DNA of 64,000 nucleotides from Ignavibacteriota bacterium (lineage in GTDB: Bacteria; Bacteroidota; Ignavibacteria; UBA10030; UBA6906), in contig CAWDEM010000008.1 of NCBI GenBank assembly GCA_963801355.1, positions 1,472,001-1,536,000 on the forward strand. Reading direction: 5' to 3'. The notes below the pieces were generated by a model. It saw only the letters and a program-made list of their open reading frames with translations, was not told the DNA's origin and did not search any database. Below are positions 16,392 to 61,284 of the stretch, one piece after another. A program made the position numbers and the translations under genes. Each line of letters opens with the position of its first letter. The first letter of the stretch is position 1.

Positions 16392-17724
16392 TGTAGCTCT
16401 TCAATATTCCATCCGCGTCCAACATAGCGAATCCGAGCGACTTTCGCTACTTTGAATTGTGTATCAACCAACCGGACAGAAGCCCAGATGCTCAGTTCCT
16501 TCCTCTCGTTTTGTCTCCGATTCTTCAGATCACGGATTCAGCTTCAGCTGGAGATCATCTTCCTCCGAAAACAGCTCGAAATACTCGCTCGCACGTCCCT
16601 GAGACCCCGACTGCGATCCTCCGACAGATTCTTCTTCAGCACCATGACCAATGTTTTCGGCTCTTGGAAGGAGACGCTGCTGGTCATCAAGCCGGAAACG
16701 GTCATCCGGTGGCACCGGCAAAGCTTCAGATTGCTTTGGAAATGGAAAAGCCGATCAGAAGCGGGCAGACCGAAGATCCCGCAGGCCCAGATCAACCTGA
16801 TCAAGCAGATGGCAAACGAGAATCCCCTCTGGGGCGCCCCCCGGATTCACGGAGAGTTGCTCAAGCCCGGGTTTGATATCTCAGAAGCCACAGTACAACG
16901 ATACATGCCCAAGAGACAGCATAGAACCACCCGGCAACGTTGGAAAATCTTCTTGAAGAACCATTCATCACAAATCGTATCAGTTGATTTCCTCGTCGTC
17001 CCCACAATCACCTTCCGGTTGTTCTACGTTCTGGTCTTCCTATCACACGACAGGCGAAGAATCATCCATTTCAACGTCACGGCCAATCCCACCGCTCACT
17101 GGTGTGCTCAGCAGTTGCGCAACATCTTCTGTGATCATGAGCCACCAAGATTTCTTCTGCGGGATCGTGATGCGAAGTTCGGCGAGATGTTCACCGAGAT
17201 TGTGACCGCGCTTGGTATCGACCCACTGTTGACAGCCTACAGGTCGTCGTGGCAAAATGGATACGCGGAACGACTAATCGGGAGCATAAGGCGCGAATGT
17301 CTCGACCACTTGATTATTCTGAATGAAACACACCTGCGTGAGATTGTGCAGGAATACGTCCGCTACTACAACACGCAACGAACCCACCTGGGGATCGCCA
17401 AGGACTCACCTGAGCCGCGGGAGGTTCAAACCGAAGGGGAGATTGAGAAGATTCCTGTGGTGGGCGGACTGCATCACTATTACTTCCGACGGGCCGCGTA
17501 AGGAACACTCACGAACTGATTACTGCGATGTTGCCCGCGTGGGCTGTGGGGGGATCTACGTCCTTCCTTCGGAAGAAACCGTCCCTCAAGCAAGAATCTC
17601 AACTCCCTTCCCTACTCTGCTGGAAGACAACCCTCTTGAATTCTGTTTACTCCGCTTGAGGACTTCGCTCAACTGAGAGATCGCGGGAGTATTCCGCGTC
17701 GGATGGAATATTGACGAAGGAAAC
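16392..17724 (+). mobile_element. Integrase-core (rve) insertion sequence with terminal inverted repeats
   Basis: Perfect 15-bp inverted repeat TCAATATTCCATCCG (16401-16415) / CGGATGGAATATTGA (17700-17714) flanks the transposase; outer ends are approximate. Confidence 0.75.
16488..17501 (+). CDS. DDE transposase, integrase core domain
   Basis: ENPLWGAPRIHGEL, SVDFLVV, LLRDRDAKF, QNGYAERLIGSIRRECLDH, GGLHHYY. Confidence 0.9.
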   Translation: MLSSFLSFCLRFFRSRIQLQLEIIFLRKQLEILARTSLRPRLRSSDRFFFSTMTNVFGSWKETLLVIKPETVIRWHRQSFRLLWKWKSRSEAGRPKIPQAQINLIKQMANENPLWGAPRIHGELLKPGFDISEATVQRYMPKRQHRTTRQRWKIFLKNHSSQIVSVDFLVVPTITFRLFYVLVFLSHDRRRIIHFNVTANPTAHWCAQQLRNIFCDHEPPRFLLRDRDAKFGEMFTEIVTALGIDPLLTAYRSSWQNGYAERLIGSIRRECLDHLIILNETHLREIVQEYVRYYNTQRTHLGIAKDSPEPREVQTEGEIEKIPVVGGLHHYYFRRAA

Positions 17725-17958
17725 GGCTGTGTAGATGGTGGACATGATTCTGTCGTCCACATTGGGACAGCTCAAACCGTCGTGAGGTTTGATTAGGAAG
17801 TATCCAACCATTGAGATCATTCTAAGCGAAAGACCGCTTTCGAAATCTCGGGTTGGATTGCTCCGGCGTTTGAGAGAAGATTAGCAGCGAATTCCGCGAT
17901 CAAGTCTCAAGACTGACCTTCCAATGGCGAGCTACGCTGTTCTGTGTTCCTTGAACTA

Positions 17959-42000: not shown

Positions 42001-42293
42001 ACAGGCTTGATATGGAATTCAGGAGGAATATTCTGCTGATGTACAAAGAGGTCCTGCACAATATTCAGAAACATGCCCGCGCAACCCAGGTTCGCATACT
42101 GATCAACGAGGATCCGGGTCATTTTGCCATCACGATTGAAGATAATGGAGTCGGGTTTGATACTGCACTTCCCAGCTCCGGCAATGGGCTAAGCAACCTC
42201 AAAAGCCGCGCTTCCTCCATGGGGGCAACACTCGAGATTGTCTCTGCCCCCGAACGGGGAACCCAGGTGAAGATTGCGGTGAGGCTGCCTTGA
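39081..42293 (+). CDS. Sensor histidine kinase with periplasmic beta-propeller, Y_Y_Y domain and HisKA_3 kinase
   Basis: Many IYEDxSGxLWIGT repeats; YAYKLDGFD..W; PPYWQTWWF plus transmembrane helix; DLHDEIGSNLS; EDNGVGF, GNGL. Confidence 0.93.
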   Translation: MSSSRSKILLVSFLSTLAVAPAVFCANEREIRFEHLTVEQGLPSNTVFGILQDSRGFMWFGTGDAGLCKFDGYSFTVYKYDPLDSNSIPANNINQIYEDDSGTLWLFGCVRFERATGKFTSYKDLEAYPSSAYATYTRPPHMHEDMSGALWFASQGLNKFDRTSGTFTRYSLSNDTLYAICGDPDDGRIFWIGTARGLDRFDRENGTFAHYDHGSRNVVNTIHGDKFGFLWIGTDEGLYKFNKVTGAFSYYPIGKKIFGSLERTNVGLIYEDNRGLLWISTEAGLFRFNRATRTFKEYKNDDASARSEGRQVMAILEDRSGELWVGMLGGGVAKYDRPKDKFSFYVNDPKDPHSLSNNDVTRIYEDSSGTLWIGTWWGGLNKVDRARKAFTHCTLEPADPKSLSDKIVTGLVEDRSGVLWVGTMGGLNRFNRETETFTHYMNNPNNPQSLGSNVIRCVLADSKGTIWVGTLGRGLDRLDPVKSGGTGQGKERFKHYTHDAGNPNSLGSNYILSLFEDTSGRLWIGTRDEGLDEFDRNSGKFIHYKHDPKDPNSLGWNWVNAIYEDKSGALWVGTATVNALNKLDRATGKFTRYCCDPKDIKSLSFYSVHSIYEDSRGTLWIGTASGLNRFDRSTETFTHFTTKDGIASDFIGAILEDDSGCLWLKTLKGVSKFNPRTGTFRNYDASDGVNINPSWGKASYKTRNGEMYFGGTNGFVRFHPDSIRDNPNVPPIVITKFLISDTLATLDTAITEKKGITLSHAEDAFGFEFASLNYTNPAKNQYAYKLDGFDKDWVKCGTRRYASYTHLDPGAYVFTVKGSNNDGKWNEAGTSISVIIRPPYWQTWWFRSLVAIVVLALVALAYNYRVARLLEMERLRVRISTDLHDEIGSNLSAIALQSDLVRSGVSMGDKGNDRLMEISRSARQMANDLRDIVWTINPGLDRLNDMVDRMRTIASTMLGGISYTFQGQAGTATDRLDMEFRRNILLMYKEVLHNIQKHARATQVRILINEDPGHFAITIEDNGVGFDTALPSSGNGLSNLKSRASSMGATLEIVSAPERGTQVKIAVRLP

Positions 42294-44088: not shown

Positions 44089-46782
44089 TCAGGGATTCCA
44101 CACCCACCTGGGCTTGCAGTCCGACGACGAAACGTAACGCTTTAAACTCGACAACAACGTGGCGGAAAACGGATCAACATCCGCCGTCCGCTGAAGCGGA
44201 AGCGCACACACCAGCAGCTTCCCCTTCCCTACCTTCATCTGCACAACATACCCCGCATGCCTGTGCACCCACCCGATGAAAAGCCCCGCTAACACATCCC
44301 CGAAATGTTCGGGAGGAATGCCGCGAACCGCATACGGCATCTCCATTCCCGCGGACTCAAATCCGAATCGACGGTCCGGACAAACACCACGGAATGGCCC
44401 CCTGTCGTTGCGTACCCAGCTCAACACCGACGCCCAATTCCCTTCGTACCCCCCCGTGTCCCGGTCGACTGCGATCAATGGAAAACCCGCAGGGAACACG
44501 GTAACGCTGTCCATCAACAACAACACATCCCCTCCTTGTTGCAGCGCAGCGACAGAACTCGAGTCCAATGCCGAGGTGACTTTGACCGCCGGGGTTCCCT
44601 CTTTTGCAGCTTCACGCGAAAACACTGCAAGATCCAGGTGATTTGTCGCCAACTCCGTACCAGCACTCGAGACCATCCGGAAGTTGATGTTGAGTTTCCC
44701 GGATGACTTTGCCCCCGCCGGGGGAAGCTGCATCGTGGGAAAGACCGTGACCGTGCCCGGTGGAACCTGACCGAACAAGATGCTCCCTGAATCCCCCCGC
44801 GATGTCCGCCAGTGAACCGTCACACCCCGCGCGCTCTCATCGGAATAACGGGAACACCGAACATCAATCGACGGCTCTTCATCATTCCACCAGGCGAACC
44901 TGGCGGGCCGCGCAACAATGACGTCCTGCTGCTGTATCGCCGGCAACACCTTGCCGCATTCCTTAAGGTTCCTCCACATGTCCATCAACCCGTTGCACTC
45001 CCAGTTGATGTCAGTGAACTCTGTGATGACATACCCTTCGATCCCCGGTGTGAACCGTAACATCTCAATCTGGTACTTCAGCGCATCCGACTGCGCCCGC
45101 TGGCTGACACCCAGCATCTCTCTGTAACTCCCGAACACGCTCGCGAGGTTGTACTGCGCGAACCGTGCCGCGTACCCTTCGGGGACGACAACTTCCGATT
45201 TTCCCAGACCCCTCCCCATCCACCAGGGCGCCGGATCGGGAACTGCCGGCAATCCCCACGTGCCAAACTCGGACAGCAGAAGAGGCTCTCTCCCAGTGGT
45301 CACCGCATCGCCGTACGGACTGAAGAGCCATGCAGGCCGCGCAGCCATGGCGGTGACGACATCATCAAACTGCTTCCGGCGATCGGGCATTGCGGCATAC
45401 TCGTGATAGTCGTTCAGGTCAGTCTTGAGATGGAAGTTACCCCGGCATGCGCTATTGTCCACGACAAGACGGCCCGTTGCGTACACCTTCATCCTGTCAA
45501 ATGCGCCCCGCAACCATTCCCTCTGCTCTGTCTTCTTTAGATCCACCCCCCAGCTTTCATTGATGATGCTCAGCATGACGAGCGACGGGTGGTTCCAATC
45601 GCGGTCAAGCATCTCCCGTAGCGTTTGCTCGCCGCGTGCGCCCGCTTCAGCAGTGAAGACATCCCAGTTGGGAATCTCGTACCAGACCAGCAGTCCAACT
45701 TCATCCGCAACTTTCAGGTAAAGGGGATCTGGCGCCTTGATATGGCACCGCAGCGTGTTCAGACCGATGCGCTTCGCTTTCAACATTTCGTCGCGCAGAT
45801 ACTCCTCTGAGGGCGTTGTGTAAATGGTGTGCGGATAGAAATCCTGATCCAGAGCACCGATGAGGTAGAACGGCCGCCCATTGAAAAGGATTTTCCCTCC
45901 GTCTGTCGCGATCGAACGGAAACCGAACCGGTCGCGGACGGGCGGGTTTGCATCGAGGTTCGCCTCAATTGTGTAGAGCGCCGGACTCACCGGACTCCAC
46001 AGCACCGGCTGGTTCACTTCGAGGGGGACATGCGCCAGGCTGTCCCTGACCGAAACCCGCGCGCGGGCACGGGCGACCACCTGACCTTTTTCGTCCTGGA
46101 TCTGAACTTCGAGTCGGTTGTGCGCGTCGGCCGCAATGGGTGCGGACAGGTGAAGGTTGACTTCCACTTCTCCGTTGATGTTCGGAGTGACTTCCAGCCG
46201 GGTGATCCTGCGGGGAGGCACTACATCGAGCCGGACGCTCTGCCACAACCCCGAAGTCTGCACGTACCAGGTCTGCTTCCCATGCGGGATGCTCCTGTAC
46301 ACAATCCCCTCCGTGCCTTCTCCTCCCAACACCGGATCCATGACACGGACAATGATTTCATTAGCGCCTGGATGGATGACGGCTCCGATATCGACACTGA
46401 ACGGCGTATACCCTCCCTCGTGTACACCATTGCGAGTTCCGTTTGCAAAGACCTCCGCCCTGTAGTCCACTGCTCCGAATGTCAGAACCGCCGTTTCACC
46501 TCTCCGGATGTGAGGGGCATCGAACGATTTCCTGTACCACCCCACACCCTGGTAGTCACGAAGATCAGGAAACTGAGCCTGCCAGGAACCAGGAACGGAG
46601 ATAGGCCGCCAGAATGCCCTGGCCACCACGGTTTCACTTGTGTACTGCCCACTGCTGTCGGCCGCAAAGAGCCATTCGCCGTCAAGACTCATCATGGTGA
46701 CGCGCGTTGGGGATGCACACAACGGGATTGCGGTGATCAGGAGGAGCGTGACTGAACAGCATATGCGGGGGAGATGGTCCAT
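44089..46782 (-). CDS. Glycoside hydrolase family 2
   Basis: FGAVDY, HEGGYTPF, LDQDFYP, RDWNHPS...NESWG, SEFG. Confidence 0.9.
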   Translation of the reverse strand: MDHLPRICCSVTLLLITAIPLCASPTRVTMMSLDGEWLFAADSSGQYTSETVVARAFWRPISVPGSWQAQFPDLRDYQGVGWYRKSFDAPHIRRGETAVLTFGAVDYRAEVFANGTRNGVHEGGYTPFSVDIGAVIHPGANEIIVRVMDPVLGGEGTEGIVYRSIPHGKQTWYVQTSGLWQSVRLDVVPPRRITRLEVTPNINGEVEVNLHLSAPIAADAHNRLEVQIQDEKGQVVARARARVSVRDSLAHVPLEVNQPVLWSPVSPALYTIEANLDANPPVRDRFGFRSIATDGGKILFNGRPFYLIGALDQDFYPHTIYTTPSEEYLRDEMLKAKRIGLNTLRCHIKAPDPLYLKVADEVGLLVWYEIPNWDVFTAEAGARGEQTLREMLDRDWNHPSLVMLSIINESWGVDLKKTEQREWLRGAFDRMKVYATGRLVVDNSACRGNFHLKTDLNDYHEYAAMPDRRKQFDDVVTAMAARPAWLFSPYGDAVTTGREPLLLSEFGTWGLPAVPDPAPWWMGRGLGKSEVVVPEGYAARFAQYNLASVFGSYREMLGVSQRAQSDALKYQIEMLRFTPGIEGYVITEFTDINWECNGLMDMWRNLKECGKVLPAIQQQDVIVARPARFAWWNDEEPSIDVRCSRYSDESARGVTVHWRTSRGDSGSILFGQVPPGTVTVFPTMQLPPAGAKSSGKLNINFRMVSSAGTELATNHLDLAVFSREAAKEGTPAVKVTSALDSSSVAALQQGGDVLLLMDSVTVFPAGFPLIAVDRDTGGYEGNWASVLSWVRNDRGPFRGVCPDRRFGFESAGMEMPYAVRGIPPEHFGDVLAGLFIGWVHRHAGYVVQMKVGKGKLLVCALPLQRTADVDPFSATLLSSLKRYVSSSDCKPRWVWNP

Positions 46783-46949
46783 AGAAATCTCTCAGGAAAG
46801 GTTCCCATAATAACCACAAGTGAGAGCAGTATGTCAAGAGCATAAGCATATCAGTCTACGGTATCAGTTTACGGTTGCTGTCTTGGCCCGTTGACAATAT
46901 CGATGACATTGCGTACACTTTCCCCCACACACCTCCGGAGGCTCCCGCC

Positions 46950-49238
46950 ATGCCGCGTATCCTGTTAACACTCTCGCTGATTCTCCTCACGGAATGCTCA
47001 TTTGCCTCGGACCCCGCATACTACATCCGCAAGGATTCCTGGAATGAAACTATGCGTTTGTCGCGGGAGTCCCTTTTTGCGTACCGGGCATCGCTCCCGG
47101 ACGCCGCCCGGATGTTTCTTTCCTCATGGAAACATGCCGGCCCATTCCATGCAGCTGCGGGATCACCCTTTACTGAGATCTTTCCACCGGAAATATCACC
47201 TGTGCTCGACTCGGCATACGGCGGCATCCGCTGGACTGGACATCCTGAGTGGATAGATGGAAAGGTGACCAGTCTAGGATCAGATACCATGTGCGCACAC
47301 TTTCTCCACCGGATCATCACGGCAGGGCGCGATACTTCTATTGTCTTCTCTCTCGGAAGCGACGATGGAATCCAGGTATGGGTGAACGGACGGAATCTTC
47401 TGTCACACGACGTCAACCGCGGCGCCGAACCCGACCAGGAACGACTTCCCGTACGCCTCCACAAGGGTGCTAACACCCTCCTTGTCAAAATCAGCAATAA
47501 CAACGGGCGGACCGGATTTTTCTTCAATGTCGAAGATTCCGAGAAGCGCATGCTGTGGGAACTCGTGCGAAGGGATTTCCCGGATTCCATCAGTCTGCGG
47601 GAAATGGAGTGGGAAACCGCCGACAGCATCTGGACCGCTGACTGGTCGCCGGGAGACGTGATGCCGCTTTCCATCCGTTACGCGGATCACGCCCTGTGCG
47701 AATCATTCGCGCAGTGCCACGCACTCGGCATCAAAGCCCGCATCGTGCAAAGCCCTTCGGATCTGGCGGAAATCCGGGAAGCATACCTGGTCTTCAAAGA
47801 GGCTGACCTCGTCCAAACGATCCTCACACCGAAACCTCCCGCCACACCGCGGATCAACGGGCCGCGCAGGATCGGGGCACGGCCGGGACACCCCTTCCTG
47901 TTTCTGGTGCCTGTCAGCGGCGAACGACCCCTCACCGTGCGGGCTTCCGGACTCCCACGCGGATTGAAACTCGATCCGCAATCCGGCGTGATCAGCGGAC
48001 AAGTGAACGCACCGGGCACCTACCGCGCCACCGTCACTGCCACAAATGCCCGCGGGCAATCAACGGGGTCTATTATGATTGTGATCGGCCCGGCGATTGC
48101 ACTCACTCCACCACTGGGTTGGAACAGCTGGAACTGCTTCGCCGAGGCCGTGGACGACCAACGCGTGCGCAGCGCAGCAGGCGCCATGATCGCCACCGGA
48201 CTCAGCCAACACGGCTGGTCGTATATCAACATTGATGACTGCTGGGAGATCAGACCCGGAAGCACCGACCCCATGCTGAGCGGCGTGCCACGTGATGCGA
48301 ACGGCAGGATCAACACCAACCGGAAATTCCCCGACATGAATGGGCTCAGCGCCTACATCCATGAGAAGGGGCTGAAGATGGGGATCTATTCTTCGCCCGG
48401 CCCACTGACATGTGCAGGCTATACAGGAAGCTACAACCACGAGGCTGATGACGCCCGTCAATACGCATCATGGGGAATTGACTACCTGAAATACGACTGG
48501 TGCTCGTACGGGCAGATCGCAAAGGACCAGAGCCTTTCCGAACTGAAAAAGCCGTATGAACTCATGCGCACGGCGCTCGACGGAGTGCCGCGCGATATTC
48601 TGTATTCCCTCTGCCAGTACGGCATGGGCAACGTCTGGGAATGGGGAGCAACGGTGGGGGGCAATTGCTGGCGCACTACCGGAGATATCACGGATACCTG
48701 GGAAAGCATGTCGGAGATCGGCTTCTCCCAGGCCGGACACGAACCATACGCCGGACCCGGCCATTGGAACGATCCGGATATGCTCGTCGTCGGCAAGGTT
48801 GGATGGGGGCCGTCACTGCATCCGACACGCCTGACACCGAACGAACAATACACTCATATCAGCCTCTGGTGTCTTCTCGCCGCTCCGCTGCTGATCGGCT
48901 GCGACATGACCCAGTTGGATGACTTCACTCTCGGACTGCTCACGAATGACGAAGTGCTCGCCGTGAATCAGGACCCGCTCGGGACGCAGGCACGGCGGAT
49001 CTCAAAAGACGGCGATCTGGAAGTATGGGCAAAGAAGATGGAAGACGGATCCCACGCGGTCGGACTGTTCAACAGGGGCCGGTGGATAAAGGAAGCCACT
49101 CTCCTGTGGAAGGATCTGGGCTTGAAGGGTGATCGCAAGGTGCGGGATCTCTGGCGACAGAAGGACCTCGGCACATTCAACGGCCGGTTTTCTGCTGAAG
49201 TGCCAAGACATGGAGTGGTGCTGGTCAGAGTTAAGTGA
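46950..49238 (+). CDS. GH27 alpha-galactosidase with N-terminal accessory and Ig-like domains
   Basis: TPPLGWNSWN, IDDCW, YLKYDWC, WRTTGDI, WNDPDML. Confidence 0.92.
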   Translation: MPRILLTLSLILLTECSFASDPAYYIRKDSWNETMRLSRESLFAYRASLPDAARMFLSSWKHAGPFHAAAGSPFTEIFPPEISPVLDSAYGGIRWTGHPEWIDGKVTSLGSDTMCAHFLHRIITAGRDTSIVFSLGSDDGIQVWVNGRNLLSHDVNRGAEPDQERLPVRLHKGANTLLVKISNNNGRTGFFFNVEDSEKRMLWELVRRDFPDSISLREMEWETADSIWTADWSPGDVMPLSIRYADHALCESFAQCHALGIKARIVQSPSDLAEIREAYLVFKEADLVQTILTPKPPATPRINGPRRIGARPGHPFLFLVPVSGERPLTVRASGLPRGLKLDPQSGVISGQVNAPGTYRATVTATNARGQSTGSIMIVIGPAIALTPPLGWNSWNCFAEAVDDQRVRSAAGAMIATGLSQHGWSYINIDDCWEIRPGSTDPMLSGVPRDANGRINTNRKFPDMNGLSAYIHEKGLKMGIYSSPGPLTCAGYTGSYNHEADDARQYASWGIDYLKYDWCSYGQIAKDQSLSELKKPYELMRTALDGVPRDILYSLCQYGMGNVWEWGATVGGNCWRTTGDITDTWESMSEIGFSQAGHEPYAGPGHWNDPDMLVVGKVGWGPSLHPTRLTPNEQYTHISLWCLLAAPLLIGCDMTQLDDFTLGLLTNDEVLAVNQDPLGTQARRISKDGDLEVWAKKMEDGSHAVGLFNRGRWIKEATLLWKDLGLKGDRKVRDLWRQKDLGTFNGRFSAEVPRHGVVLVRVK

Positions 49239-49274: not shown

Positions 49275-50324
49275 CTACTCCACCTTGAAGCATCTCCTGT
49301 ACAGTTCCTCGCCTCCTTCGGCCACGACATCAATCACCGGTGTGGAGAGTGCATTCGCCAGCGCAGACCGGCCAAAGGCCGCATCAAGATATGCCGGACG
49401 GTACGTCGTGCCATCGAATGCAGGATAATACGGATTGAATGTCACTGCAGCCAGTTCGGACCGGTGACGGTAGCATATCCGGACGGAGAGTTCCTCCAGC
49501 ATTTCGAGCAGGCCGCCAACCCGCACAGGTTCCCCCGCGAGCAAAAGACGGAATGGATTGTCAAACACGAGGGCAATCCCCCTCGCCTCCGCGTGTCGCA
49601 ACCGGTCGCAGAGCGCCGCCAGACCGTCGGCCGTCACCATCCCCGGCAGCACAATCCCGGCCAGCCCCTCCGGCAGCAGTCTCAGGGACCGGAGAATGTC
49701 TTCCGCGCTATGGAAATCACTCGACGCACACTGTACCTGCACATCCCTGGCCACAAGCCGGATTCCCGACACCTGCGCGTAGTCTTCGTCCGACAATCCG
49801 AACCGGAAGATCCGCTCTATCGCTGAAGTCTCTTCTACAAGCTGGCCGATGTTCGTCGAACGGGCGCCTCCGGTCGCAAACACCACGCGATCTGCAACCG
49901 ACATGGGCGCAATCCGGTTCAGTGACCCGTCAACCAGTAGTTCGGATGCTCCGAGTGACTCCATCTGCCGGGCCACCCTGGCGAGGTCGGCCGTCTTGTT
50001 CGGACCGGCGACAACAACAAGTCCCCCTTTCTCAACAACCGTAATGACTACTTCCCCCAATGCGGTGAACGTGGAGGAGTGCTGCAGTACACGCAATCGC
50101 GCGGTGGAGACCGACAGGCATTGCTCGGAGGTCGTGACAATCATGCCGGGTTTCACAATGATGCGCGGCTTCGGGAGCAGAGTGACGTTGTCACGTTCCT
50201 CTCCGTCATAGCCGATGCCGGTGACGCCCGGCAAGTGCCCCCTGGCATACGCTGTCTGGATCAGCGTGCCGAGTGTTGTTGTCTTTCCGGTATTCTTTGC
50301 AGTTCCGGCAACCCCGATGATCAT
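49275..50324 (-). CDS. P-loop protein resembling the accessory protein of lysine 5,6-aminomutase clusters (KamB-like)
   Basis: GTAKNTGKTT Walker A, TGIGYDGE, KPRI, TALGEV, LVDGSLNR, FATG. Confidence 0.65.
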   Translation of the reverse strand: MIIGVAGTAKNTGKTTTLGTLIQTAYARGHLPGVTGIGYDGEERDNVTLLPKPRIIVKPGMIVTTSEQCLSVSTARLRVLQHSSTFTALGEVVITVVEKGGLVVVAGPNKTADLARVARQMESLGASELLVDGSLNRIAPMSVADRVVFATGGARSTNIGQLVEETSAIERIFRFGLSDEDYAQVSGIRLVARDVQVQCASSDFHSAEDILRSLRLLPEGLAGIVLPGMVTADGLAALCDRLRHAEARGIALVFDNPFRLLLAGEPVRVGGLLEMLEELSVRICYRHRSELAAVTFNPYYPAFDGTTYRPAYLDAAFGRSALANALSTPVIDVVAEGGEELYRRCFKVE

Positions 50325-50327
50325 GGC

Positions 50328-52131
50328 TCAGGCAACCGTCCCTTTACCGAAGGTCCCGGGATACGCGCCATCCTCCCGGTCGCCCAGGAGCCCTGCCGAG
50401 ATGGCGGCAGGAAGATCCGGCGCAGATTTTACGCGGTCCAGGACTTCGGCGATCTTCGCGTGCATATCCGCCGTCATCGAGTCAGCTGCGGCGGTTGGCG
50501 CAAAACCCGCTTCACCCATGAAGCGCGCGGCTTCGTGAATGCCCTGTAGGCTGTCGATACGCGAAGCGATGCAGATCGGACCGCGGGAATACGCTTCGTC
50601 AGTCGACGCCACAGTCATCGCATCCACCTTGAGCGCAGTGCCGAGGGCCGCATGGAAGGATGTTGCCGCCGCGGATTGCACACGATCTTCGGTCTGTGTC
50701 ATGAATGCGATCGGCTCGCCGGGCCAGATGGGACAGTCGACGATGGCCCGCAGCGCACGAATCTTCGCCGCGTTGTAGTCCACAAAGGTCTGACGCATCA
50801 GTCCGTTGATGACGATGTGCGGACCATAACAGAAGAGAGGTTTGAGTATGCCACGCGCACCGAGACGCTTTCCCAAGTGCACGTTGATCAGAAGCCCGGC
50901 AAGAGTCTTCCACGCGGGAACGCCGCTCAGCTCATCGTTTCCCGGTATATCGAATGGCATGTTGAACCGGGCCGCGAGCCGGATGGCTTCCACCCCGTCA
51001 ACCGCCAGCCGCGCCGGATCCGTGCCGGCTCCAAGCGATCCGTACACGAGGTCAATCTTGGTCATATCCGCACCGCCATGCGCAGCCAGGACCACCGTCT
51101 CCGGCGTGTTCAGCCCTCTGTGCGCTCGAACCGTGAGCAGCGTCGAGGGATCCAGGAGTTCGCGCATCAGCCGTATATTCTCAACGGACGTGACGGTGCC
51201 GTCGTTCTGATGCGTGAGCGCGCCCTCCAGCAATCCTTCATATCGTGCCTCCCACGAAGGATTGATGAGCAGGAATCCATCCACACCCCACCGTTCGCAC
51301 ACTTTGGCGTGGATGAGGTCCATGACCGGACAGCCGGAACCGAGGAATTTGAAAATCAACGGCCGCTCGCCCGAATGACGCAGTGTCACCGGCCGGAACG
51401 CACTGCGCTCCTTCAACATCTCCCGGAGCGCCTGGAGTTCTTCCCGGGATACATTCCTCACCCCCTTGGGCATGACATTCCGCCGGAATGCATCAACGAT
51501 CACGCTGTCTGACAACGACAGGTATTCATCGAGCAAGGCCGCCTTCCTGGATCCGGATGCATCCGAAAACATTTCTCCGCGCAACCGCGCGCGCTTGACG
51601 CCGGGGCTGGATTTCCCTTCTGACCAGCGCAACAACTTCTCCACAATCTCATCCAGGGCACTCTCGATCCGCCGGTCGTGAACGCGGTAGCTGTAGCCCG
51701 CGGTGATATCGGGTTTCTTCTTCTGAACGCCTACGACTTGATCCTGCGCGGTCTTTCCCTTCGATGAATGCAACGATATCTTCGATGCGGGAGTGCTCGT
51801 CAAATCCGCGATCGAAACCAAGCTCGGCGGCAAGTTCGGAAGTAATAGCTTTGCCACCCAGAATCACGCGTGAACGCTCGCGCACGCCTGCGGCATCCAG
51901 AAGATCCACAAACCGTCCCAGAAGCTCCGCCACTCCGTACCCGAGAGTCCGGCTGACCAGTATGTCATCATACGTACCGGTCGCGGCACGCCGGACGATC
52001 TCTTCCATCGGCAGATCGGGTGAGAGCAGCTCGGTATCGAAGCCGCGGGTGGCAAGGGCGTTCCGAATGATCTTGATGCCCACATCATGCACCGGATCGA
52101 GTGGCACGCAGAGGATCCGCTTCTTGTTCAT
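50328..52131 (-). CDS. Cobalamin-dependent mutase (B12-binding domain fused to an aminomutase-type TIM barrel); +1 frameshift near 51755
   Basis: DPVHDVG...LVS...ILGG...AELGFDRGF B12 domain (ORF 51649-52131) continues into ORF 50328-51857 after GAAGGGAAAGACC; about 600 aa if joined. Confidence 0.75.
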
Positions 52132-52385
52132 GCCAGTTGGTCCTTCTCTCCCGGTCCCATAAGCCAGTGATAGGGATCGCCTGGCCTGTGAATGTACTTC
52201 CGCAGTCTCACCCGGACCCCGTAGCCGTCGAATTCACAGAACATGATATCGACTTCTCCGAGGCCCAGTTCGTGCCCAAGGCGGAGCGCGAGGTCTTTAC
52301 CCTCGCGCTCGCTCCCGCAGACAAGGTAGGTCTCGATGTCGAGACCGTCCATTACCGCATCAATGGCTTTCATCGTCTGACTCAT
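52128..52385 (-). CDS. Small protein resembling the aminomutase dimerisation domain
   Basis: Translationally coupled to the mutase (ATGA overlap); DG-strand-helix-LGL.E pattern. Confidence 0.7.
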   Translation of the reverse strand: MSQTMKAIDAVMDGLDIETYLVCGSEREGKDLALRLGHELGLGEVDIMFCEFDGYGVRVRLRKYIHRPGDPYHWLMGPGEKDQLA

Positions 52386-52440
52386 ATGTACATGGGAGAT
52401 AATTCCGGCCCTGCGGGCCGAACAATCACCGGGTGCCTGT

Positions 52441-53916
52441 CTATTCGAACATGCCGGATTCGTTGCAGACGATTTCGATCAACATGACCAGCGCCCGAAC
52501 GATCATCCGGGCACGCTCGGGAATCAGCTGACCATGCTCATCCGTCGTACCCAACCCGGGCGAGATGAAGATGTTCGCGTCGTATGCGATGGTCGGAATG
52601 ATCCCCATCTGGCTCATGCCATCCTGGAAGATGTTTGTCCCGGAATACATGTCTTCGATGGAGAAGATGGGAATGCCGAGCTTGCCGTCTTTCCAGCTGT
52701 CTTCATAGTTCACCTCGACCGCACCGGAGTTGTAGCTCTTGGCGATCTTAAAGAACGGACGGATGCGTGAGTCGATTTTCGCGAATTCTGCGACTACGAT
52801 GTCGTGCAGTTCATCAATGGGCTTCGTCATGACTTCCGGCTTGTCACGGAGCACTTTGAGGGCCGCCACCTGACCGGAGAGGGCCTCCTTGCCTGGATCC
52901 ATGGTAACGTACGCAGCTTTACCGTACGACGTCGTCGTGCCAAACCGGGCGCCGTGGTAGCCGAGAGCACGGCGGATCGGCACCATAACTTCTTCCCTGC
53001 CGATGATCAATGCACTGGTCGGTGAGCCGCTGGCCTTGTCCATGCTGAAGATCATGATATCTGCGCCGATCTTCTTGATGCTGTTGCCGATGATCGGAAT
53101 GCCCCACGCGTTGTCGATGATGTACGGAACATCATAGGACCGGGCGATTTCGGCGATCCCCTTCTGCAGCAGCGGCGTGCCATCGGCGTCCTTCGTGCCG
53201 TAGCCGTACCCAGGAGTATCATAACCAAGCGAGGCAAATCCGCCCAGGAGCGTTTCATGCTGCTTTGCCGCGGTCCGGATTGCTGCAATCGAAGCCTTGG
53301 CATCGACGTTCTTCATCAACGGAACGGGATGGTATTTGATGCCCTGGACAGGATAGGAGGCACCCGGAAGGGGCACAAACACCGTATCGAGATTGTGCGC
53401 GCGCTTACCGTAGAATCCCAACTCGCCGGCCGTACTGCCGCGATCAGCGAGAATATCCTTGTATTTGGGGGGGTACGGACGCCCATAGCCGCCCTGATGA
53501 TGGATGTGACGCTCCCAGGGAGCGATGTACCGTGTGCGGTAGTTGTCGCCACGCCCCTGGAACGGGGGAGACACGAGGCAGTCAAAACTCACCCAGAGGC
53601 CGCCTTCACAGGTATTAACCGGCGCGGCATCATAGTCGTCGCCATAAGCGCCCTTGACGATCTCGCGGATCTGATCGACATATACGGTGAGCGAAACGAC
53701 CTTGCGCCCTTCGACCGCCATCGCTTTTTCGATATCTTCACGCAACGGAGAGGGACATCCGGAGATGGCGCCGGTGAGTCCGATTGCGCCTTTCAATTCT
53801 GCCGGCATCTTGAGCGTCTCCGCAGCCTTCTTTGCCTCCGCATAAATCTTCGGCAGGTTTGCCTGAAGCCGCTTGTACATCTGGAATTTGAACGACGGTC
53901 GTGCCATTGAATGCAT
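52441..53916 (-). CDS. Fold-type I PLP-dependent enzyme, SelA/DgaE-like
   Basis: VPYIIDNAWG and IFSMDKASGSPTSALIIGR (putative PLP lysine). Confidence 0.78.
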   Translation of the reverse strand: MHSMARPSFKFQMYKRLQANLPKIYAEAKKAAETLKMPAELKGAIGLTGAISGCPSPLREDIEKAMAVEGRKVVSLTVYVDQIREIVKGAYGDDYDAAPVNTCEGGLWVSFDCLVSPPFQGRGDNYRTRYIAPWERHIHHQGGYGRPYPPKYKDILADRGSTAGELGFYGKRAHNLDTVFVPLPGASYPVQGIKYHPVPLMKNVDAKASIAAIRTAAKQHETLLGGFASLGYDTPGYGYGTKDADGTPLLQKGIAEIARSYDVPYIIDNAWGIPIIGNSIKKIGADIMIFSMDKASGSPTSALIIGREEVMVPIRRALGYHGARFGTTTSYGKAAYVTMDPGKEALSGQVAALKVLRDKPEVMTKPIDELHDIVVAEFAKIDSRIRPFFKIAKSYNSGAVEVNYEDSWKDGKLGIPIFSIEDMYSGTNIFQDGMSQMGIIPTIAYDANIFISPGLGTTDEHGQLIPERARMIVRALVMLIEIVCNESGMFE

Positions 53917-53931
53917 CCTTTCTGAAGTATG

Positions 53932-54369
53932 TTACGATTGAAAGCCGCGAATGAGGACGGACGTCCCCGGCCGGAGGCCGAGGCCTTCCCCGGTGACCCG
54001 TCCTGCTGTCTTGAGAATTATGTTCTGATGATTCGGTATGTGCGTGTCGTCATATCCGGCGATCGTCCCGATCGGCTTGCCATCCACTTCCACTTCATCG
54101 CCGACGAGCAGAATACCGCCAGTGGTCAGTTCGACGAATGCCACGTAGCCGATTCGGTCCACGGTCGCGCCCGGCACGGCGTTGGACTCGTCGGTGCTGA
54201 TGAATTCGACGATGGTGCCGGCCGGAAATGCCCGTGAGATGGGGGCTATCAGATGGAGCGCACGCGATTCCAGCATCCCGCGTAACACCGTCACCACCCT
54301 GCCACTCACGTCCGCCTTGGCGGCAAAGAATGTGCGATTGGTCATCTTCTGCTCATAGGGGTCGCCCAT
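53932..54369 (-). CDS. Conserved small beta-barrel protein (DUF6917-like)
   Basis: PGATVDRIGYVAFVE..GG...GD...IGTIAGYDDTHIPNHQNI. Confidence 0.7.
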   Translation of the reverse strand: MGDPYEQKMTNRTFFAAKADVSGRVVTVLRGMLESRALHLIAPISRAFPAGTIVEFISTDESNAVPGATVDRIGYVAFVELTTGGILLVGDEVEVDGKPIGTIAGYDDTHIPNHQNIILKTAGRVTGEGLGLRPGTSVLIRGFQS

Positions 54370-54376
54370 GGTCGCC

Positions 54377-55306
54377 TCACACAAGTTTTGTGACAAACGA
54401 ATCCACATCGCCATGCAGGAAATCCACGACGGGCAGCTCGATCATGGTATAGCAGCCGGGCTTCTGTCTCATCGCGGCACGGGCCGCGGAGACCATCACC
54501 TGCGCGGTCAGTGCGGGATTGTTGACCTTGAGCTGAAAGCGCATGGACTGGTTATGGGTGATGCCGGAGACACCGTTCCGCTCCAGCAGCACGCCGTGGC
54601 CCGTGTCCATCAACGAGGCGACGTCATCCACCTCGTAGACGTACGTCCGGTCTTTCACGAAGTACGGATCTGTCTTGATGGCGTGTTCGACTTCTTCGAA
54701 CTTTGCGCCGGATTCCAGCTGGACATAGACCATCCGGCGGTGAACACCCATTCCTGCCGGCACGGTGAGGGAGATGGCATCGTGCACTCCCTTGATGGCC
54801 CGCACGGCAACCGAGTGCCCCATGGAAAGTCCGGGTCCGTAATTCGTGTATGTGATCCCCCGCGGCGCCATGACCTGGAACCACGCCCGCATGACCGAGT
54901 CAACCCCGGGATCCCAGCCGGCGGAAAGAATCGACACCGTGTTGTGTTCACGGGCAACCTTGTCGAGTTGCTTGCGCAGTGTGGGGATATCATGATGGAT
55001 GTCAAAGCTGTCGACGGTGCGAACGCCTCGCTTCAGAATGGGTTCCACTGCCTTGACCACCGCTCGTGATGGACAGCTGACGATTGCCACGTCGATGGCG
55101 CCGAGGTCTTCGATCTCGGATGCGATCTTGACGTTCTGCATGCCGATCGGGTCACGCTCGGTCAAACGGTCCTGCTTCGTGATGAACGCCGGCACTTCGA
55201 CGACGCCGACCAGCTTCATATCCGGCTCGACGAGGATGGATTCGACTGCACAACGTCCGACATTGCCGTATCCGACGACAGCGACTTTGATGCGGGGTGT
55301 GGCCAT
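54377..55306 (-). CDS. ddh: meso-diaminopimelate dehydrogenase family (D-amino acid dehydrogenase)
   Basis: VGYGNVG, TVDSFDIH, AGWDPGVDS, GPGLSMGHS, GHGV, NPALTAQ. Confidence 0.88.
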   Translation of the reverse strand: MATPRIKVAVVGYGNVGRCAVESILVEPDMKLVGVVEVPAFITKQDRLTERDPIGMQNVKIASEIEDLGAIDVAIVSCPSRAVVKAVEPILKRGVRTVDSFDIHHDIPTLRKQLDKVAREHNTVSILSAGWDPGVDSVMRAWFQVMAPRGITYTNYGPGLSMGHSVAVRAIKGVHDAISLTVPAGMGVHRRMVYVQLESGAKFEEVEHAIKTDPYFVKDRTYVYEVDDVASLMDTGHGVLLERNGVSGITHNQSMRFQLKVNNPALTAQVMVSAARAAMRQKPGCYTMIELPVVDFLHGDVDSFVTKLV

Positions 55307-55344
55307 GACTGCTCCTGAGATAGTTCTGTTCCCTGAAGGACAGA

Positions 55345-56061
55345 TTACGTCTGTGAAGCTTTTTGTTGTTCGATGAACGCACACAGCGCAGCGCGGGCGG
55401 CATCGCCGTGCTCACGCACAAGCCGCTCCGCCGCATCGCCATCTCTTCGTGCGAGGGCCTCCAGAATGCCGGCATGCTCGCTGAGAGAGGCGGAGAGATG
55501 GGAGAGCACAGACAGATAGATGTAGTTGTAGCGCAGGGCCTGACTGCGCAAGACACGAATGTATTGAATGAGTTTTTCGTTGCGTGAAGCGTTGCTGACC
55601 GCTGCATGGAACTCTGCGTTCAGCTGGAGGATGCGGCGGTGATCGCGGGACCGGGCAGCGGCAAGACGCGTCATGCGCTCATGAATTTCCCGCAAAGCAT
55701 CCAGTTCGGCTTCGGTGATCTTTTCACTTGCCAGACGGGCCGCGAGCGACTCCAGCACGCCCTTGACCTGGTAGGTTTCCACGGCATCGTCCCGGGAGAG
55801 CTCACTCACCACGGCTCCGCGACGCGGGGTGACGTTTACAAACCCTTCGGAGTCAAGCTGCAAGAGCGCTTCACGGAGCGGAGTCCGGCTCACACCCAGC
55901 CGCGCGGCCAAATCGGGCTCGGCGAGTCTCTCTCCCGGACGGATCTTGCCGTCGATAATAGACGCCCGCACCATCTCCGCAATACGATCGCGCAGGGGCT
56001 TCACTTCCTCCAGATGCACATCCGCGAGGCTAACATCCTCCGTGCGCGCGGCGCGTGCCAT
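55345..56061 (-). CDS. GntR (FadR/FCD) family regulator
   Basis: PGERLAE..LA..LGVSRTPLREAL; FCD domain FH...SLSEH. Confidence 0.92.
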   Translation of the reverse strand: MARAARTEDVSLADVHLEEVKPLRDRIAEMVRASIIDGKIRPGERLAEPDLAARLGVSRTPLREALLQLDSEGFVNVTPRRGAVVSELSRDDAVETYQVKGVLESLAARLASEKITEAELDALREIHERMTRLAAARSRDHRRILQLNAEFHAAVSNASRNEKLIQYIRVLRSQALRYNYIYLSVLSHLSASLSEHAGILEALARRDGDAAERLVREHGDAARAALCAFIEQQKASQT

Positions 56062-56075
56062 ACTCTGTTTCCTTT

Positions 56076-56095
56076 GTATATTGTATACAATATAC
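56076..56095. promoter_or_regulatory. Putative GntR operator
   Basis: Perfect 20-bp palindrome GTATATTGTATACAATATAC, 14 bp upstream of the gntR start. Confidence 0.75.
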
Positions 56096-56189: not shown

Positions 56190-56344
56190 GATTCATCCAG
56201 AGTGGTGGAGGGACAGACCCTGCGAAGCCACAGCAACCGGTTCCGACAGCCCCCAAAGGTGTGATGCAGATGGGCGGCGGAATGCAGGTGCTAACTTCTG
56301 TTCCCGCCCCGGCCCGTGAATGGGCGGCGGGATGAAGATGAATC
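56190..56344 (+). ncRNA. SAM-I riboswitch
   Basis: TTCATCCAGAG-TGGTGGAGGGACAGACCC-TGCGAAGCCA-CAGCAACC...GGTGCTAA...GATGAA; upstream of metY. Confidence 0.92.
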
Positions 56345-56368: not shown

Positions 56369-58891
<2,523 letters not shown>

Positions 58892-58895
<4 letters not shown>

Positions 58896-60280
58896 AACGC
58901 ATTGTCATGAAATTCGGCGGGACGTCCGTGGAAGATGCCCCCGCAATGGAGCGCGTCGCGGCGATAACGACGGCACAACAGTGCCCGGAACGCATCGTCG
59001 TTCTCTCCGCTGCGGCCGGCGTAACCAATCAGCTTCTCCGCACCGGTGAGCTGGCCGCACAGGGACAGGAGGCGTCGGCCCTCGAAGTGCTCAGCATCAT
59101 ACGCACACGCCACCTGGCGATTGCCCGGCAGCTGCTTCCACCCTCTCTCTCCGAGCCGGTATCCACTACAATCGATTCCTGGTGCGATGAACTGGGTGAC
59201 CTTGTGCACGGCATCTCAGTGCTCGGCGAGGCGACACCACGGTCGTTTGATCTTCTGGCATCGTTCGGCGAACGGTTCTCCACGCTGATTTTCCATGCGC
59301 ATCTGCAAGCACTGGGTCTCGCGGCGGAGCTTGTGGACGCCCGATCGTTTATGATCACCGATCACCAGTTCACGCGTGCGCTTCCCGACCTGCACGTCAT
59401 CCCGCGGAAGCTCGAGGAGCACGTCATGCCCGTTCTCCGCCGCGGAGCCATTGTGGTGACCCAGGGATTCATCGGGGCAACGGCCAACCATATCACCACC
59501 ACCATAGGGCGCGGTGGATCGGACCATTCGGCCGCGCTCATTGGATCGCTCCTGGATGCTGATGAGATTCAGATCTGGACTGATGTCGACGGCATTCTGA
59601 CTGCAGACCCATCGATCGTGCCCGATGCGCACCGCATCAAGGTCATGTCGTTCATGGAGGCATCCGAGCTCGCCTATTTCGGTGCCCGTGTCCTGCACCC
59701 GGACGCCATCCTGCCGGCAATCAGCAAACATATCCCCGTCCGCGTGCTGAACTCGCGCCGCCCCGCATCGCACGGCACGACTATTATCGCGCAGCCTGGC
59801 GCATCGGGGCACTGCATTGTGAAATCCATCGCGTACAAGGAACACATTACACTGATCAGCATCGTCTCCACGCGGATGTTCCTGGCGCATGGATTTCTCG
59901 AGAATATTTTCGATGTGTTCCACAAGTACCGCACGGTGGTGCACACGGTGGCCACGTCGGACATCAGCGTCTCGGCCACCATCAACGACACGACCCATCT
60001 CTCGGAGATCGTCGGAGAGTTGGGGCAGTTTGCGACGGTCAGAGCATCCGCAGCCAAGGCCATCGTCTGCGTTGTCGGAGACAATCTGCGGAACAGTCCG
60101 GGTGTTGCCGCGCGGGTGCTCAATGCCATCAGTGCGGTAAATATTAACATGATCTCGGCGGGCGCATCGGAGATCAACGTCAGCTTCGTGGTGGACGATG
60201 CACACCTGGAGGACGTCGTCCGCCTCCTTCACGATGAGTTTTTCAACTCACAGGACATTAACAGGGACATATTCGACTGA
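58892..60280 (+). CDS. lysC: Aspartate kinase
   Basis: KFGGTSV, GRGGSD, WTDVDG, two ACT domains. Confidence 0.94.
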
Positions 60281-61284
60281 TGAGCAACCGCACGTACAGG
60301 GTGATTGTCGCAGGCGCCACGGGCCTGGTGGGACGCAAGATGATCCAGGTGCTCGAAGAGCGCCGGTTCCCGGTCAGCGCGCTGATTCCTCTCGCTTCTG
60401 CCCGCTCTGTGGGGCGGTTGCTGCGGTTCCACGGGGCGGATCTGCCGGTGCAGGAGCTCTCCGAAGCTTCTCTTGCCGAGGCAAAGGCAGACATCGCGCT
60501 GTTTTCCGCGGGAGCGTCCGTCAGCAGGCAGTTTGCCCCGATTGCCGCACGTCTGGGCATCGTGGTCATTGACAACAGCAGCGCATTCCGGATGGAGCCC
60601 GGCGTGCCGCTCGTCGTCCCCGAAGTGAACCCGCAATCGGCCTTCATGCACAGGGGCATTATCGCCAACCCCAACTGCTCGACGATCCAGATGGTGGTAG
60701 CACTGAAGCCGCTACACGACGCATTTACCATCAAACGGATTGTCGTGGCCACCTACCAATCGGTCACGGGTGCGGGTTGGCGCGGGCAGCACCAATTGGA
60801 GCTGGAACTGGAAGGCAAGACGGATCCGGATCCGAAGTTCCCCCACCGCATCGCCATGAACGCCCTCCCCCATATCGACACATTCGGCGATGACGGCTAC
60901 ACAAGAGAAGAAGTGAAGATGGTGAACGAGACAAGAAAAATCATGGGGGATGATTCACTGCGGGTTACCGCGACCTGTGTGCGCGTCCCGGTGCTGGGCG
61001 GACACAGCGAAGCAATCAACGTGGAGTTCGAGATGCCTTGTGATATTGCACGGGTACGGGAACTCCTGGCGAAAGCCCCGGGAGTGATTCTCGTGGATGA
61101 TCCGCAGCGTGCGCGCTATCCCCTGCCGCTCGATGCGCACGACCGCGATGAGGTGTTTGTGGGCCGGATCCGCATCGACACAACGGTTCCCTCAGGCATC
61201 AACATGTGGGTCGTATCCGACAATCTCCGGAAGGGCGCGGCAACAAATGCGGTACAGATCGCGGAGTTGTTGAAAGAACCCTAG
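60280..61284 (+). CDS. asd: Aspartate-semialdehyde dehydrogenase
   Basis: GATGLVG, IANPNCST, TCVRVPV..GHSE, DNLRKGAA. Confidence 0.95.
   Translation: MSNRTYRVIVAGATGLVGRKMIQVLEERRFPVSALIPLASARSVGRLLRFHGADLPVQELSEASLAEAKADIALFSAGASVSRQFAPIAARLGIVVIDNSSAFRMEPGVPLVVPEVNPQSAFMHRGIIANPNCSTIQMVVALKPLHDAFTIKRIVVATYQSVTGAGWRGQHQLELELEGKTDPDPKFPHRIAMNALPHIDTFGDDGYTREEVKMVNETRKIMGDDSLRVTATCVRVPVLGGHSEAINVEFEMPCDIARVRELLAKAPGVILVDDPQRARYPLPLDAHDRDEVFVGRIRIDTTVPSGINMWVVSDNLRKGAATNAVQIAELLKEP

Follow-up and report, generated by a model that had tools for sequence, protein, structure and literature searches.

What amino-acid chemistry is served by seven genes packed together behind a perfect palindrome in an Ignavibacteriota genome, and is it one of the known fermentations that depend on vitamin B12? 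The DNA analyzed here, referred to as the window, is a stretch of 64,000 nucleotides (nt) from assembly GCA_963801355.1 (contig CAWDEM010000008.1, positions 1,472,001 to 1,536,000), and the genes in question occupy 49275–56095 of its minus strand, separated by gaps of 3–55 nt. An earlier note, made from the letters alone, had read them as an undescribed pathway built around a B12-dependent mutase; the open reading frames (ORFs), the gaps and the palindrome at 56076–56095 are as it described them, and its family assignments hold in Pfam and NCBIfam. We consider it probable that the genes form a distinct module of amino-acid catabolism centered on the B12 mutase. The fuller statement, in which a self-regulated operon for the catabolism or salvage of a diamino acid uses an adenosylcobalamin (AdoCbl) mutase system in a route from meso-diaminopimelate (meso-DAP), is more tentative, and we place it slightly short of an even chance.

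In order of transcription, the cluster encodes a GntR-family regulator, a DAP dehydrogenase (DAPDH), a DUF6917 protein, an enzyme dependent on pyridoxal 5′-phosphate (PLP), a conserved protein of 85 amino acids (aa), the mutase and a KamB-like P-loop protein. This arrangement is not due to chance, because in 45 of the 68 loci that we recovered by scanning one genome per species (chiefly Ignavibacteriota and Bacteroidota, plus a few Gemmatimonadota) all eight parts are colinear on one strand in genomes other than that of the window. Contig ends cut 18 further loci, and the five exceptions comprise three Gemmatimonadota loci without gntR, one locus without the 85-aa gene and one without the four upstream genes. 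Gene-neighborhood analysis thus bears out the expectation that the genes occur together elsewhere, and no further gene family was regularly attached to the cluster in the 68 loci. Taking the mutase and PLP-enzyme searches described below together, the scored candidates include more than 1000 relatives, which come from Ignavibacteriota, Bacteroidota and Gemmatimonadota and, for the PLP enzyme, also from Bacillota. In the databases they mostly go by 'hypothetical protein', 'cobalamin B12-binding domain-containing protein' or the mistaken name 'methylmalonyl-CoA mutase cobalamin-binding subunit'.

The cluster also appears to carry its own control element. The regulator (55345–56061, minus strand, 238 aa) combines a GntR DNA-binding domain (PF00392, 67.9 bits) with an FCD ligand domain (PF07729, 91.9 bits) in the Pfam scan, the domain composition of the FadR/FCD subfamily, and its gene is the first of the cluster in 45 of the 68 loci. 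The 20-bp palindrome at 56076–56095, GTATATTGTATACAATATAC, was read directly from the sequence and is likely the GntR operator, its core TGTATACA following the pattern T-GT-ATAC-A of the GT...AC type known for operators of this family; binding is predicted. Of the 46 loci that reach that far, 43 have the core upstream of gntR, at about −94 to +3 relative to the start of the gene, and in all the 1.03 Mb of the 68 loci it is present just 53 times. Longer palindromes of the same type also occur.

A second search, in which a Bacillota-type copy of the PLP enzyme was used as the query against metagenome contigs, returned 80 loci and with them a second type of cluster. Only 17 of the 80 contain a DAPDH match (one of them weak and at a contig edge), 15 of these 17 also have gntR, and the rest lack both. 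Among the 41 loci without DAPDH that exceed 6 kb, DUF6917 is present in 35, the 85-aa gene in 34, a fused mutase of about 608 aa in 32 and the KamB-like gene in 28. New members at the same 41 loci are a GIDA-like oxidoreductase using flavin adenine dinucleotide (FAD; 27 loci), a RidA-family protein (23 loci) whose gene usually lies between those for DUF6917 and the PLP enzyme, an FCD regulator whose DNA-binding domain is of another kind (23 loci) and an unnamed membrane protein of 471 aa (14 loci). The two kinds of cluster therefore share a five-gene core of DUF6917, PLP enzyme, 85-aa protein, mutase and KamB-like protein, and the amine-oxidizing enzyme is exchangeable, being either an NADP-type DAPDH or an FAD enzyme together with an imine hydrolase. 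We read the pathway as oxidative and catabolic chiefly on account of this exchange of DAPDH for the FAD oxidoreductase and RidA. The FCD regulators and the transporter genes near the clusters speak for the same direction, the latter comprising an NhaC-type gene in 17 loci and the gene for the 471-aa membrane protein in 14. In five Bacillota-type clusters, the KamB-like gene has as its immediate downstream neighbor a gene for a 231-aa ProC-like NADP oxidoreductase (L118, about 17085–17780; L120; and three others), which hints at a cyclic-imine intermediate.

With respect to the mutase, the N-terminal B12-binding domain (51757–52131, minus strand; ORF 51649–52131) scores 37.7 bits against PF02310, above the cut-off of 32.1. 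Its cobalt-ligand motif, D-P-V-H-D-V-G, is a variant form of the base-off/His-on signature DxHxxG; His15 and Gly18 do not vary among 16 sequences, and the Asp–His spacing exceeds that of aligned corrinoid proteins by one residue. Profile searches place KamE (E 4.5e-13) and then the B12 domain of OraE (E 4.3e-10) as the closest relatives of this domain in the Protein Data Bank (PDB). The C-terminal TIM barrel (50328–51753 with the linker, minus strand; ORF 50328–51857) is more distant, with 24.0 bits against PF09043, just below the cut-off of 25, E 3e-3 in a profile comparison with PDB KamD, and a probability of 70% (E 4e-5, 173 columns) when aligned by hhalign to a true KamD of the same phylum. 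On these profile comparisons, remote homology of the barrel to KamD is likely rather than secure. The curated KamD, KamE and OraE families do not include the mutase: against the curated NCBIfam equivalogs NF052384, NF052385 and NF040743 it reaches 14.8, 49.7 and 28.2 bits, with cut-offs of 600, 280 and 800, that is, 2–18% of what the lysine and ornithine mutase models demand. Its homologues show neither the separate alpha and beta subunits of KamDE nor the C-terminal B12 domain of OraSE. To our knowledge, the characterized aminomutases that use AdoCbl and PLP are the lysine 5,6 and ornithine 4,5 enzymes only. In these enzymes, we take the B12-domain lysines that form the PLP aldimine to be Lys144 of KamE and Lys629 of OraE; the mutase has an invariant Lys20 five residues past the ligand His, and corrinoid proteins without PLP binding carry a Lys here too. 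The OraE residue that we assume to be Glu81 aligns with an invariant Phe of the mutase. A genome of the same class also contains a 750-aa ORF (L164, G002:C6:26882-28843) in which a KamD/OraE-like barrel precedes a B12 domain, in the OraE-like order; this protein is distinct from the mutase family studied here.

Whereas the family named for the mutase in the earlier note was correct, the gene is not one open frame in the window, its two domains lying in different frames. These frames join in a G/A-rich run, between the EGK and PDITAGY of intact homologues. A search for mutase homologues scored 8000 candidates, of which 1002 had E ≤ 0.001; 118 of the best 120, which were listed, are single chains of 589–614 aa with the B12 domain first, and the homologue linkers, including that of a partial protein 94% identical, read through at the position of the frame change. 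The frame is likewise unbroken in all 17 other carriers from a sample of the order (introduced below) that have the gene on one contig, among them a same-genus genome with a frame of 634 aa. Since the homologues are single open proteins, the window gene has a 1-nt insertion in its linker, within an A run at 51754–51756. One base fewer is present at 51755 in a 151-nt contig of sequencing run X4, which stems from a relative about 94% alike; we found no public run containing this strain itself (best share of words 0.17), and the contigs compared, which left parts of the stretch uncovered, belong to relatives and so are no guide to the base at 51755 in this strain. Programmed frameshifting at 51755 was considered and rejected, as the relatives have a plain open frame.

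The one-base insertion at about 51755 is thus either an assembly error or a real lesion, and the pathway is correspondingly either mis-assembled or inactive in this strain. A real insertion would mean that the mutase is not made and that the operon is a decaying, strain-specific relic, which is independent of how the pathway is read and which we regard as somewhat unlikely. The two frames in the assembly, set against the 17 unbroken genes, are what such a relic would show, and a TGA stands in frame inside the lysA match of the same genome; however, the insertion sits in an A run, the 8 contigs for 4.8 Mb suggest, as a guess, error-prone long reads, and the remaining genes of the operon are all intact. 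The lysA match in question (L080, G000:C4:327072-328319) has its single TGA in a 532-aa open frame and may likewise point to errors in the assembly or to decay of genes.

The genes flanking the mutase suggest that it works as part of a larger system. The 85-aa gene (52128–52385, minus strand) adjoins it upstream nearly always in both types of cluster, and in the window the stop codon of the former overlaps the start codon of the latter (ATGA). The encoded protein has a mean column identity of 55% over 29 sequences and no relative in Pfam, NCBIfam or the PDB, a relaxed Pfam scan of its alignment giving chance-level matches only; from its position and conservation it is a probable small subunit of the mutase. 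A gene for a CorA-type magnesium/cobalt transporter stands immediately 5′ of the mutase in four loci (L008, L009, L012 and L027), separating it from the 85-aa gene in the first three, and may serve cobalt supply. After the mutase, again in both cluster types, comes the gene for the KamB-like P-loop protein (49275–50324, minus strand, 349 aa), a putative reactivase or chaperone of the mutase with an invariant Walker-A-like motif, G-T-x-K-N-T-G-K-T-T. It scores 193.1 bits against the KamB reactivase model NF052386, whose cut-off is 210, and spans all model positions (1–326 of 326). The earlier note had seen none of the lysine or ornithine partner genes here. That is correct for Ord, whose model is matched far below threshold (NF040740, 27.5 bits with a cut-off of 400), but not for the P-loop protein, a full-length KamB homologue. 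No Kdd-, Kce- or OrtA/OrtB-type match was found at E ≤ 0.01 among the cluster proteins in Pfam and NCBIfam, where the presence of such models was not checked. Profile searches of PDB sequences gave no meaningful relative for the KamB-like, DUF6917 and 85-aa proteins.

The remaining two core members are less readily placed. The PLP enzyme (52441–53907, minus strand, ORF to 53916, 488 aa) belongs to an unnamed family of fold type I and resembles SelA, DgaE, YhfS and the Cys/Met-metabolism enzymes weakly and only over a short region around the PLP lysine (Aminotran_5, 16.8 bits; TIGR01437, 28.4 bits with a cut-off of 385.3, residues 254–317), where a motif S-x-D-K is invariant. Mean column identity in the family is 83%, and the 68% identity between copies from Ignavibacteriota and Bacillota marks it as a separate, tight family. 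Of 8000 candidates scored, 1258 were related at E ≤ 0.001, the best 120 of them nearly all named 'hypothetical protein', and the nearest annotated protein-atlas neighbors of a Bacillota homologue are generic SelA/YhfS/UPF0425-like proteins. DUF6917 (53932–54369, minus strand, ORF to 54414, 145 aa) matches PF21891 with 141.8 bits and contains an invariant DDTH-PNHQN block. In terms of function, neither the searches for relatives nor a relaxed Pfam scan of its alignment, in which matches were at chance level only, led to a protein of known function. Its family has 338 representatives at E ≤ 1e-3, and the 10 long ones that were scanned for fusions join it to RidA, Gfo/Idh/MocA oxidoreductases that are not DAPDH, an M20 peptidase and a 2Fe-2S domain. 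Given these fusion partners, we associate DUF6917 with deamination and not with the PLP enzyme; an OrtA-like partnership with that enzyme was considered and rejected, since the fusions point to oxidative deamination instead.

A first link to a particular substrate comes from the dehydrogenase (54377–55306, minus strand, ORF to 55384, 309 aa). Its likely start, an ATG at 55306, was set from the length of its homologues (about 307 aa), as were the starts of DUF6917 (54369) and the PLP enzyme (53907) from theirs. The protein scores 300.9 bits against TIGR01921 (cut-off 180.6) and aligns over its full length with the DAPDH of Symbiobacterium thermophilum (PDB 3wb9, E 1.4e-118) and that of Porphyromonas gingivalis (PDB 3bio, E 2.7e-97). 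Specifically, 25 cluster copies share without variation the residues corresponding to Symbiobacterium D92, W121, D122, H154, T171, R181, H227 and N253; we take these eight positions to be the ones that bind both centers of DAP, a numbering supported by the residue type having matched at every position. Previously assigned to the DAP-dehydrogenase family, the enzyme is thus more than a relative: it is a genuine meso-DAP D-dehydrogenase.

Its distribution follows that of the mutase. The 10 mutase carriers among 201 genomes sampled from the class are also the only ones with DAPDH, and in 8 of them the two genes lie no more than a few kb apart; in a sample of the order (151 genomes), DAPDH is found in 22 genomes and the mutase in 19, all of which are among the 22. 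Two of the three genomes with DAPDH only belong to another family and have a higher-scoring type, and the third has a match at a contig edge. Because its occurrence coincides with that of the mutase in both samples, DAPDH in this class is part of the mutase module, not a housekeeping enzyme. A housekeeping role in lysine biosynthesis, as in Bacteroides, had been considered and was rejected, 191 of the 201 class genomes being without the enzyme and the other 10 being the mutase carriers. The window's genome has a single copy.

Several observations beyond the dehydrogenase are consistent with DAP as the substrate. LD-carboxypeptidase genes occur in 7 of 148 loci, and in one of them (L144) such a gene lies directly upstream on the same strand together with genes for a family-5 peptide-binding protein and an NlpC/P60 peptidase with an SH3 domain. 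True LysA (508 bits) is encoded in 15 of the 148 loci, in 5 of them directly upstream of gntR on the same strand. The window's genome, which is 100% complete, has no gene of the dihydrodipicolinate synthase (DHDPS)/DapA family, and no match to LL-DAP aminotransferase reaches the cut-off; DapB (intact, with both domains), DapF, LysA and the one DAPDH are present. Across the order sample, DapA above its cut-off is missing from 12 of 19 mutase carriers versus 14 of 132 non-carriers, and within the window's own family from 6 of 6 versus 6 of 28. DapB scored above its cut-off in none of five carriers tested, one of which has pseudogene pieces. A 288-aa ORF immediately upstream of dapB in the window's genome (L082, 482–1345, plus strand) was considered as a substitute for DapA and rejected, having no Pfam match and by eye the look of a PfkB-type sugar kinase, not of an aldolase. 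Taken together, the DAPDH residues, murein-related neighbors, LysA and the loss of DapA and DapB fit organisms that live on external DAP. The earlier suggestion of a DAP-related substrate gains from all of these, while the substrate itself is still something that we infer; meso-DAP released from peptidoglycan peptides is the likeliest candidate, at somewhat less than even odds.

Gene content, homology, synteny, co-occurrence and operator conservation are observed directly, and to these we add a proposal for the cofactors, substrate, reaction order and direction of the pathway. The 85-aa subunit, the fused protein of B12 domain and TIM barrel and the KamB-like reactivase would constitute the mutase system, which would work with the SelA/DgaE-like PLP enzyme and the DUF6917 protein and be joined by the NADP-type DAPDH in this lineage or by the FAD oxidoreductase and RidA in Bacillota-type clusters. 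After uptake of the substrate, its D-center would be deaminated oxidatively, the remaining amino group would be moved by a radical 1,2-shift, and a PLP-dependent elimination or cleavage would then yield a keto acid and ammonia. Repression of the operon by the GntR/FCD protein at the TGTATACA palindrome would last until that protein binds the substrate or an intermediate.

A number of points weigh against this proposal. We could write no route in which every gene is needed. Because meso-DAP lacks the terminal CH2-NH2 group of the known substrates, the shift would be of a 2,3 type, and we know of no B12 enzyme for which such a shift has been shown. The PLP-binding lysine of KamE and OraE finds no aligned counterpart in the mutase, HMMER alignments to KamE starting only past that region, so that any PLP dependence of the mutase is conjectural. 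Some core clusters, such as L107, have no oxidoreductase nearby. The Symbiobacterium DAPDH, the closest one solved, presumably accepts other D-amino acids as well, so that conserved residues are no proof of DAP. Murein-related neighbors are a small minority of the 148 loci, LD-carboxypeptidase and LysA alike, and some of the LysA and DacF cases at Bacillota-type loci stand amid housekeeping genes, where the synteny is perhaps coincidental. DapA is also missing from many non-carriers and is kept by 7 carriers, and one family of the class (f17) has DHDPS in 0 of 9 genomes and the mutase in only 3 of 9. Finally, the genomes behind the co-occurrence counts are relatives, not independent samples.

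In a rival reading, the mutase would be functionally equivalent to D-lysine 5,6- or D-ornithine 4,5-aminomutase and the cluster a variant of those fermentations, with lysine possibly derived from DAP via LysA. The D-alpha center of 2,5-diaminohexanoate or 2,4-diaminopentanoate would then be deaminated by the DAPDH-type enzyme or by the FAD oxidoreductase with RidA, and the PLP enzyme would act as a racemase or cleavage enzyme. A terminal amino group suits the known radical chemistry, lysine or ornithine is the substrate of every characterized relative of the two mutase domains and the P-loop partner, LysA is a neighbor in 15 loci, the NhaC-type transporters weakly match an ArcD-like arginine/ornithine antiporter, and the presumed breadth of the Symbiobacterium enzyme would accommodate such substrates. 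We nevertheless think this unlikely, given mutase scores at a small fraction of the equivalog cut-offs, the Phe at the presumed Glu81 of OraE, the failure of Kdd, Kce, Ord and OrtAB types to appear at threshold within the limits of the model libraries noted above, and the invariance of all DAPDH residues that we take to bind the L-center, which is unexpected in the absence of a distal carboxylate. Alternatively, the mutase may not be an aminomutase at all and may catalyze another B12 radical reaction, such as a carbon-skeleton shift or an elimination, leaving all amino-group chemistry to the separate PLP enzyme of the cluster. The weak likeness of the barrel to KamD and OraE (below the Pfam cut-off, and at 70% in hhalign), the unaligned PLP-lysine region, the domain order reversed relative to OraE and the displaced Asp of the cobalt-ligand motif would all agree with this, yet the two domains and the partner protein all find their closest relatives in aminomutase systems, and a Lys is invariant five residues past the ligand His, so that we judge it quite improbable.

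The loss of DapA and DapB also invites a reading in the opposite direction, in which B12- and PLP-dependent steps lead to L-2-amino-6-oxopimelate/tetrahydrodipicolinate and DAPDH converts this to meso-DAP, replacing DapA and DapB in the supply of peptidoglycan and lysine. The window's genome, with no DHDPS-family gene and yet with DapF, LysA and a single DAPDH, has the content that such a bypass would predict, as do the carrier counts for DapA and DapB; in 5 loci LysA lies directly upstream, in this lineage an operon for aspartate kinase and aspartate-semialdehyde dehydrogenase diverges from the cluster, and as a matter of general knowledge the DAPDH equilibrium favors amination. The second type of cluster, however, swaps DAPDH for an amine-oxidizing pair, and catabolic operons are the usual setting of FCD repressors and transporters. 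Furthermore, 7 carriers retain DapA while many genomes without DapA have no cluster, no plausible precursor can be named from which a 1,2-shift and a PLP step would give 2-amino-6-oxopimelate, and the scavenging of external DAP explains the loss of DapA and DapB equally well. We hold the bypass to be very unlikely and retain DAP catabolism as our working proposal.

In terms of surroundings, the aspartate-family operon lies across the palindrome from gntR. A riboswitch for S-adenosylmethionine (56190–56344, plus strand, 66.6 bits) is followed there by a four-gene operon (56455–61284, plus strand) encoding a Cys/Met-metabolism PLP enzyme (probably O-acetylhomoserine sulfhydrylase), an alpha/beta hydrolase (probably homoserine acetyltransferase), an aspartate kinase with ACT domains and an aspartate-semialdehyde dehydrogenase; these neighbors are kept in 7 related genome loci, the first two genes in 8. 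The downstream border of the cluster is a convergent alpha-galactosidase gene with an Ig-like domain (46875–49238, plus strand). Beyond it are a GH2 glycosidase (44089–46782, minus strand) and a hybrid sensor kinase with beta-propeller repeats and a Y_Y_Y domain (39081–42293, plus strand), and these three genes look like a polysaccharide-use neighborhood unrelated to the GntR operon. A group II intron-type reverse transcriptase with a maturase domain is encoded at 36218–37606 (minus strand; RVT_1, 130.8 bits; GIIM, 55.5 bits).

Titles and abstracts, mainly from non-subscription journals, contained no description of the cluster, of DUF6917 or of a DAP-linked B12 mutase, and by title and abstract the literature on diaminohexanoate aminomutases concerns the known lysine pathway only. 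Within amino-acid catabolism centered on B12 aminomutases, the architecture of this mutase and its set of partners are new. Should the general proposal be correct, the cluster would define a third family of AdoCbl/PLP aminomutases, different in architecture and equipped with its own small subunit, PLP partner and DUF protein. It would also offer testable functions for DUF6917, the unnamed PLP family and the KamB-like protein, and a new radical enzyme with which beta- or shifted diamino acids could be made. If the substrate is DAP, the cluster would explain how anaerobes consume a nitrogen-rich part of necromass in sediments, fens and digesters, and how carriers can lose DapA and DapB; fermentation of DAP would be the first dedicated anaerobic pathway for the DAP of peptidoglycan and the first B12-dependent alpha-to-beta amino shift. 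The bypass, if true, would instead add a new branch of lysine and peptidoglycan biosynthesis in Ignavibacteriota and Bacteroidota lineages without the classical upper pathway.

Among known systems, the D-ornithine 4,5-aminomutase pathway of Clostridium sticklandii (oraS/oraE, ord, ortA/ortB) offers a parallel in plan. There, too, a small-subunit gene precedes a large gene for a mutase of B12 domain and TIM barrel, which is coupled to a DapB/DAPDH-fold dehydrogenase and to a PLP enzyme that has a small partner protein. The individual parts differ. OraE has a similar B12 domain but the reverse domain order, the B12 domain being N-terminal in the window family; the 85-aa protein does not detectably resemble any solved chain, not even OraS; a true DAPDH takes the place of Ord, whose model is matched in its Rossmann part only; and instead of OrtB, which we take to be of fold type II, the cluster has a SelA/DgaE-like enzyme of fold type I. 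Compared with the DgaE/SelA/YhfS/UPF0425 group, that enzyme is about 100 residues longer and falls below every family threshold, and the RidA gene beside it in the second cluster type fits a release of enamine or imine, as by DgaE. With KamDE and its reactivase the cluster shares a KamE-like B12 domain, a remotely KamD-like barrel and an end-to-end KamB match. The separate alpha and beta subunits of KamDE are, however, replaced by one fused chain without the N-terminal domain of KamE, the PLP-lysine region of KamE does not align, and the kamA, kdd, kce and kal genes of that pathway are absent from the window cluster. The dehydrogenase matches the Symbiobacterium and P. gingivalis DAPDH over its full length and exceeds the TIGR01921 cut-off, with all presumed substrate-binding residues conserved; unlike the DAPDH of general lysine biosynthesis, it occurs in this class only in the 10 of 201 genomes that also carry the mutase.

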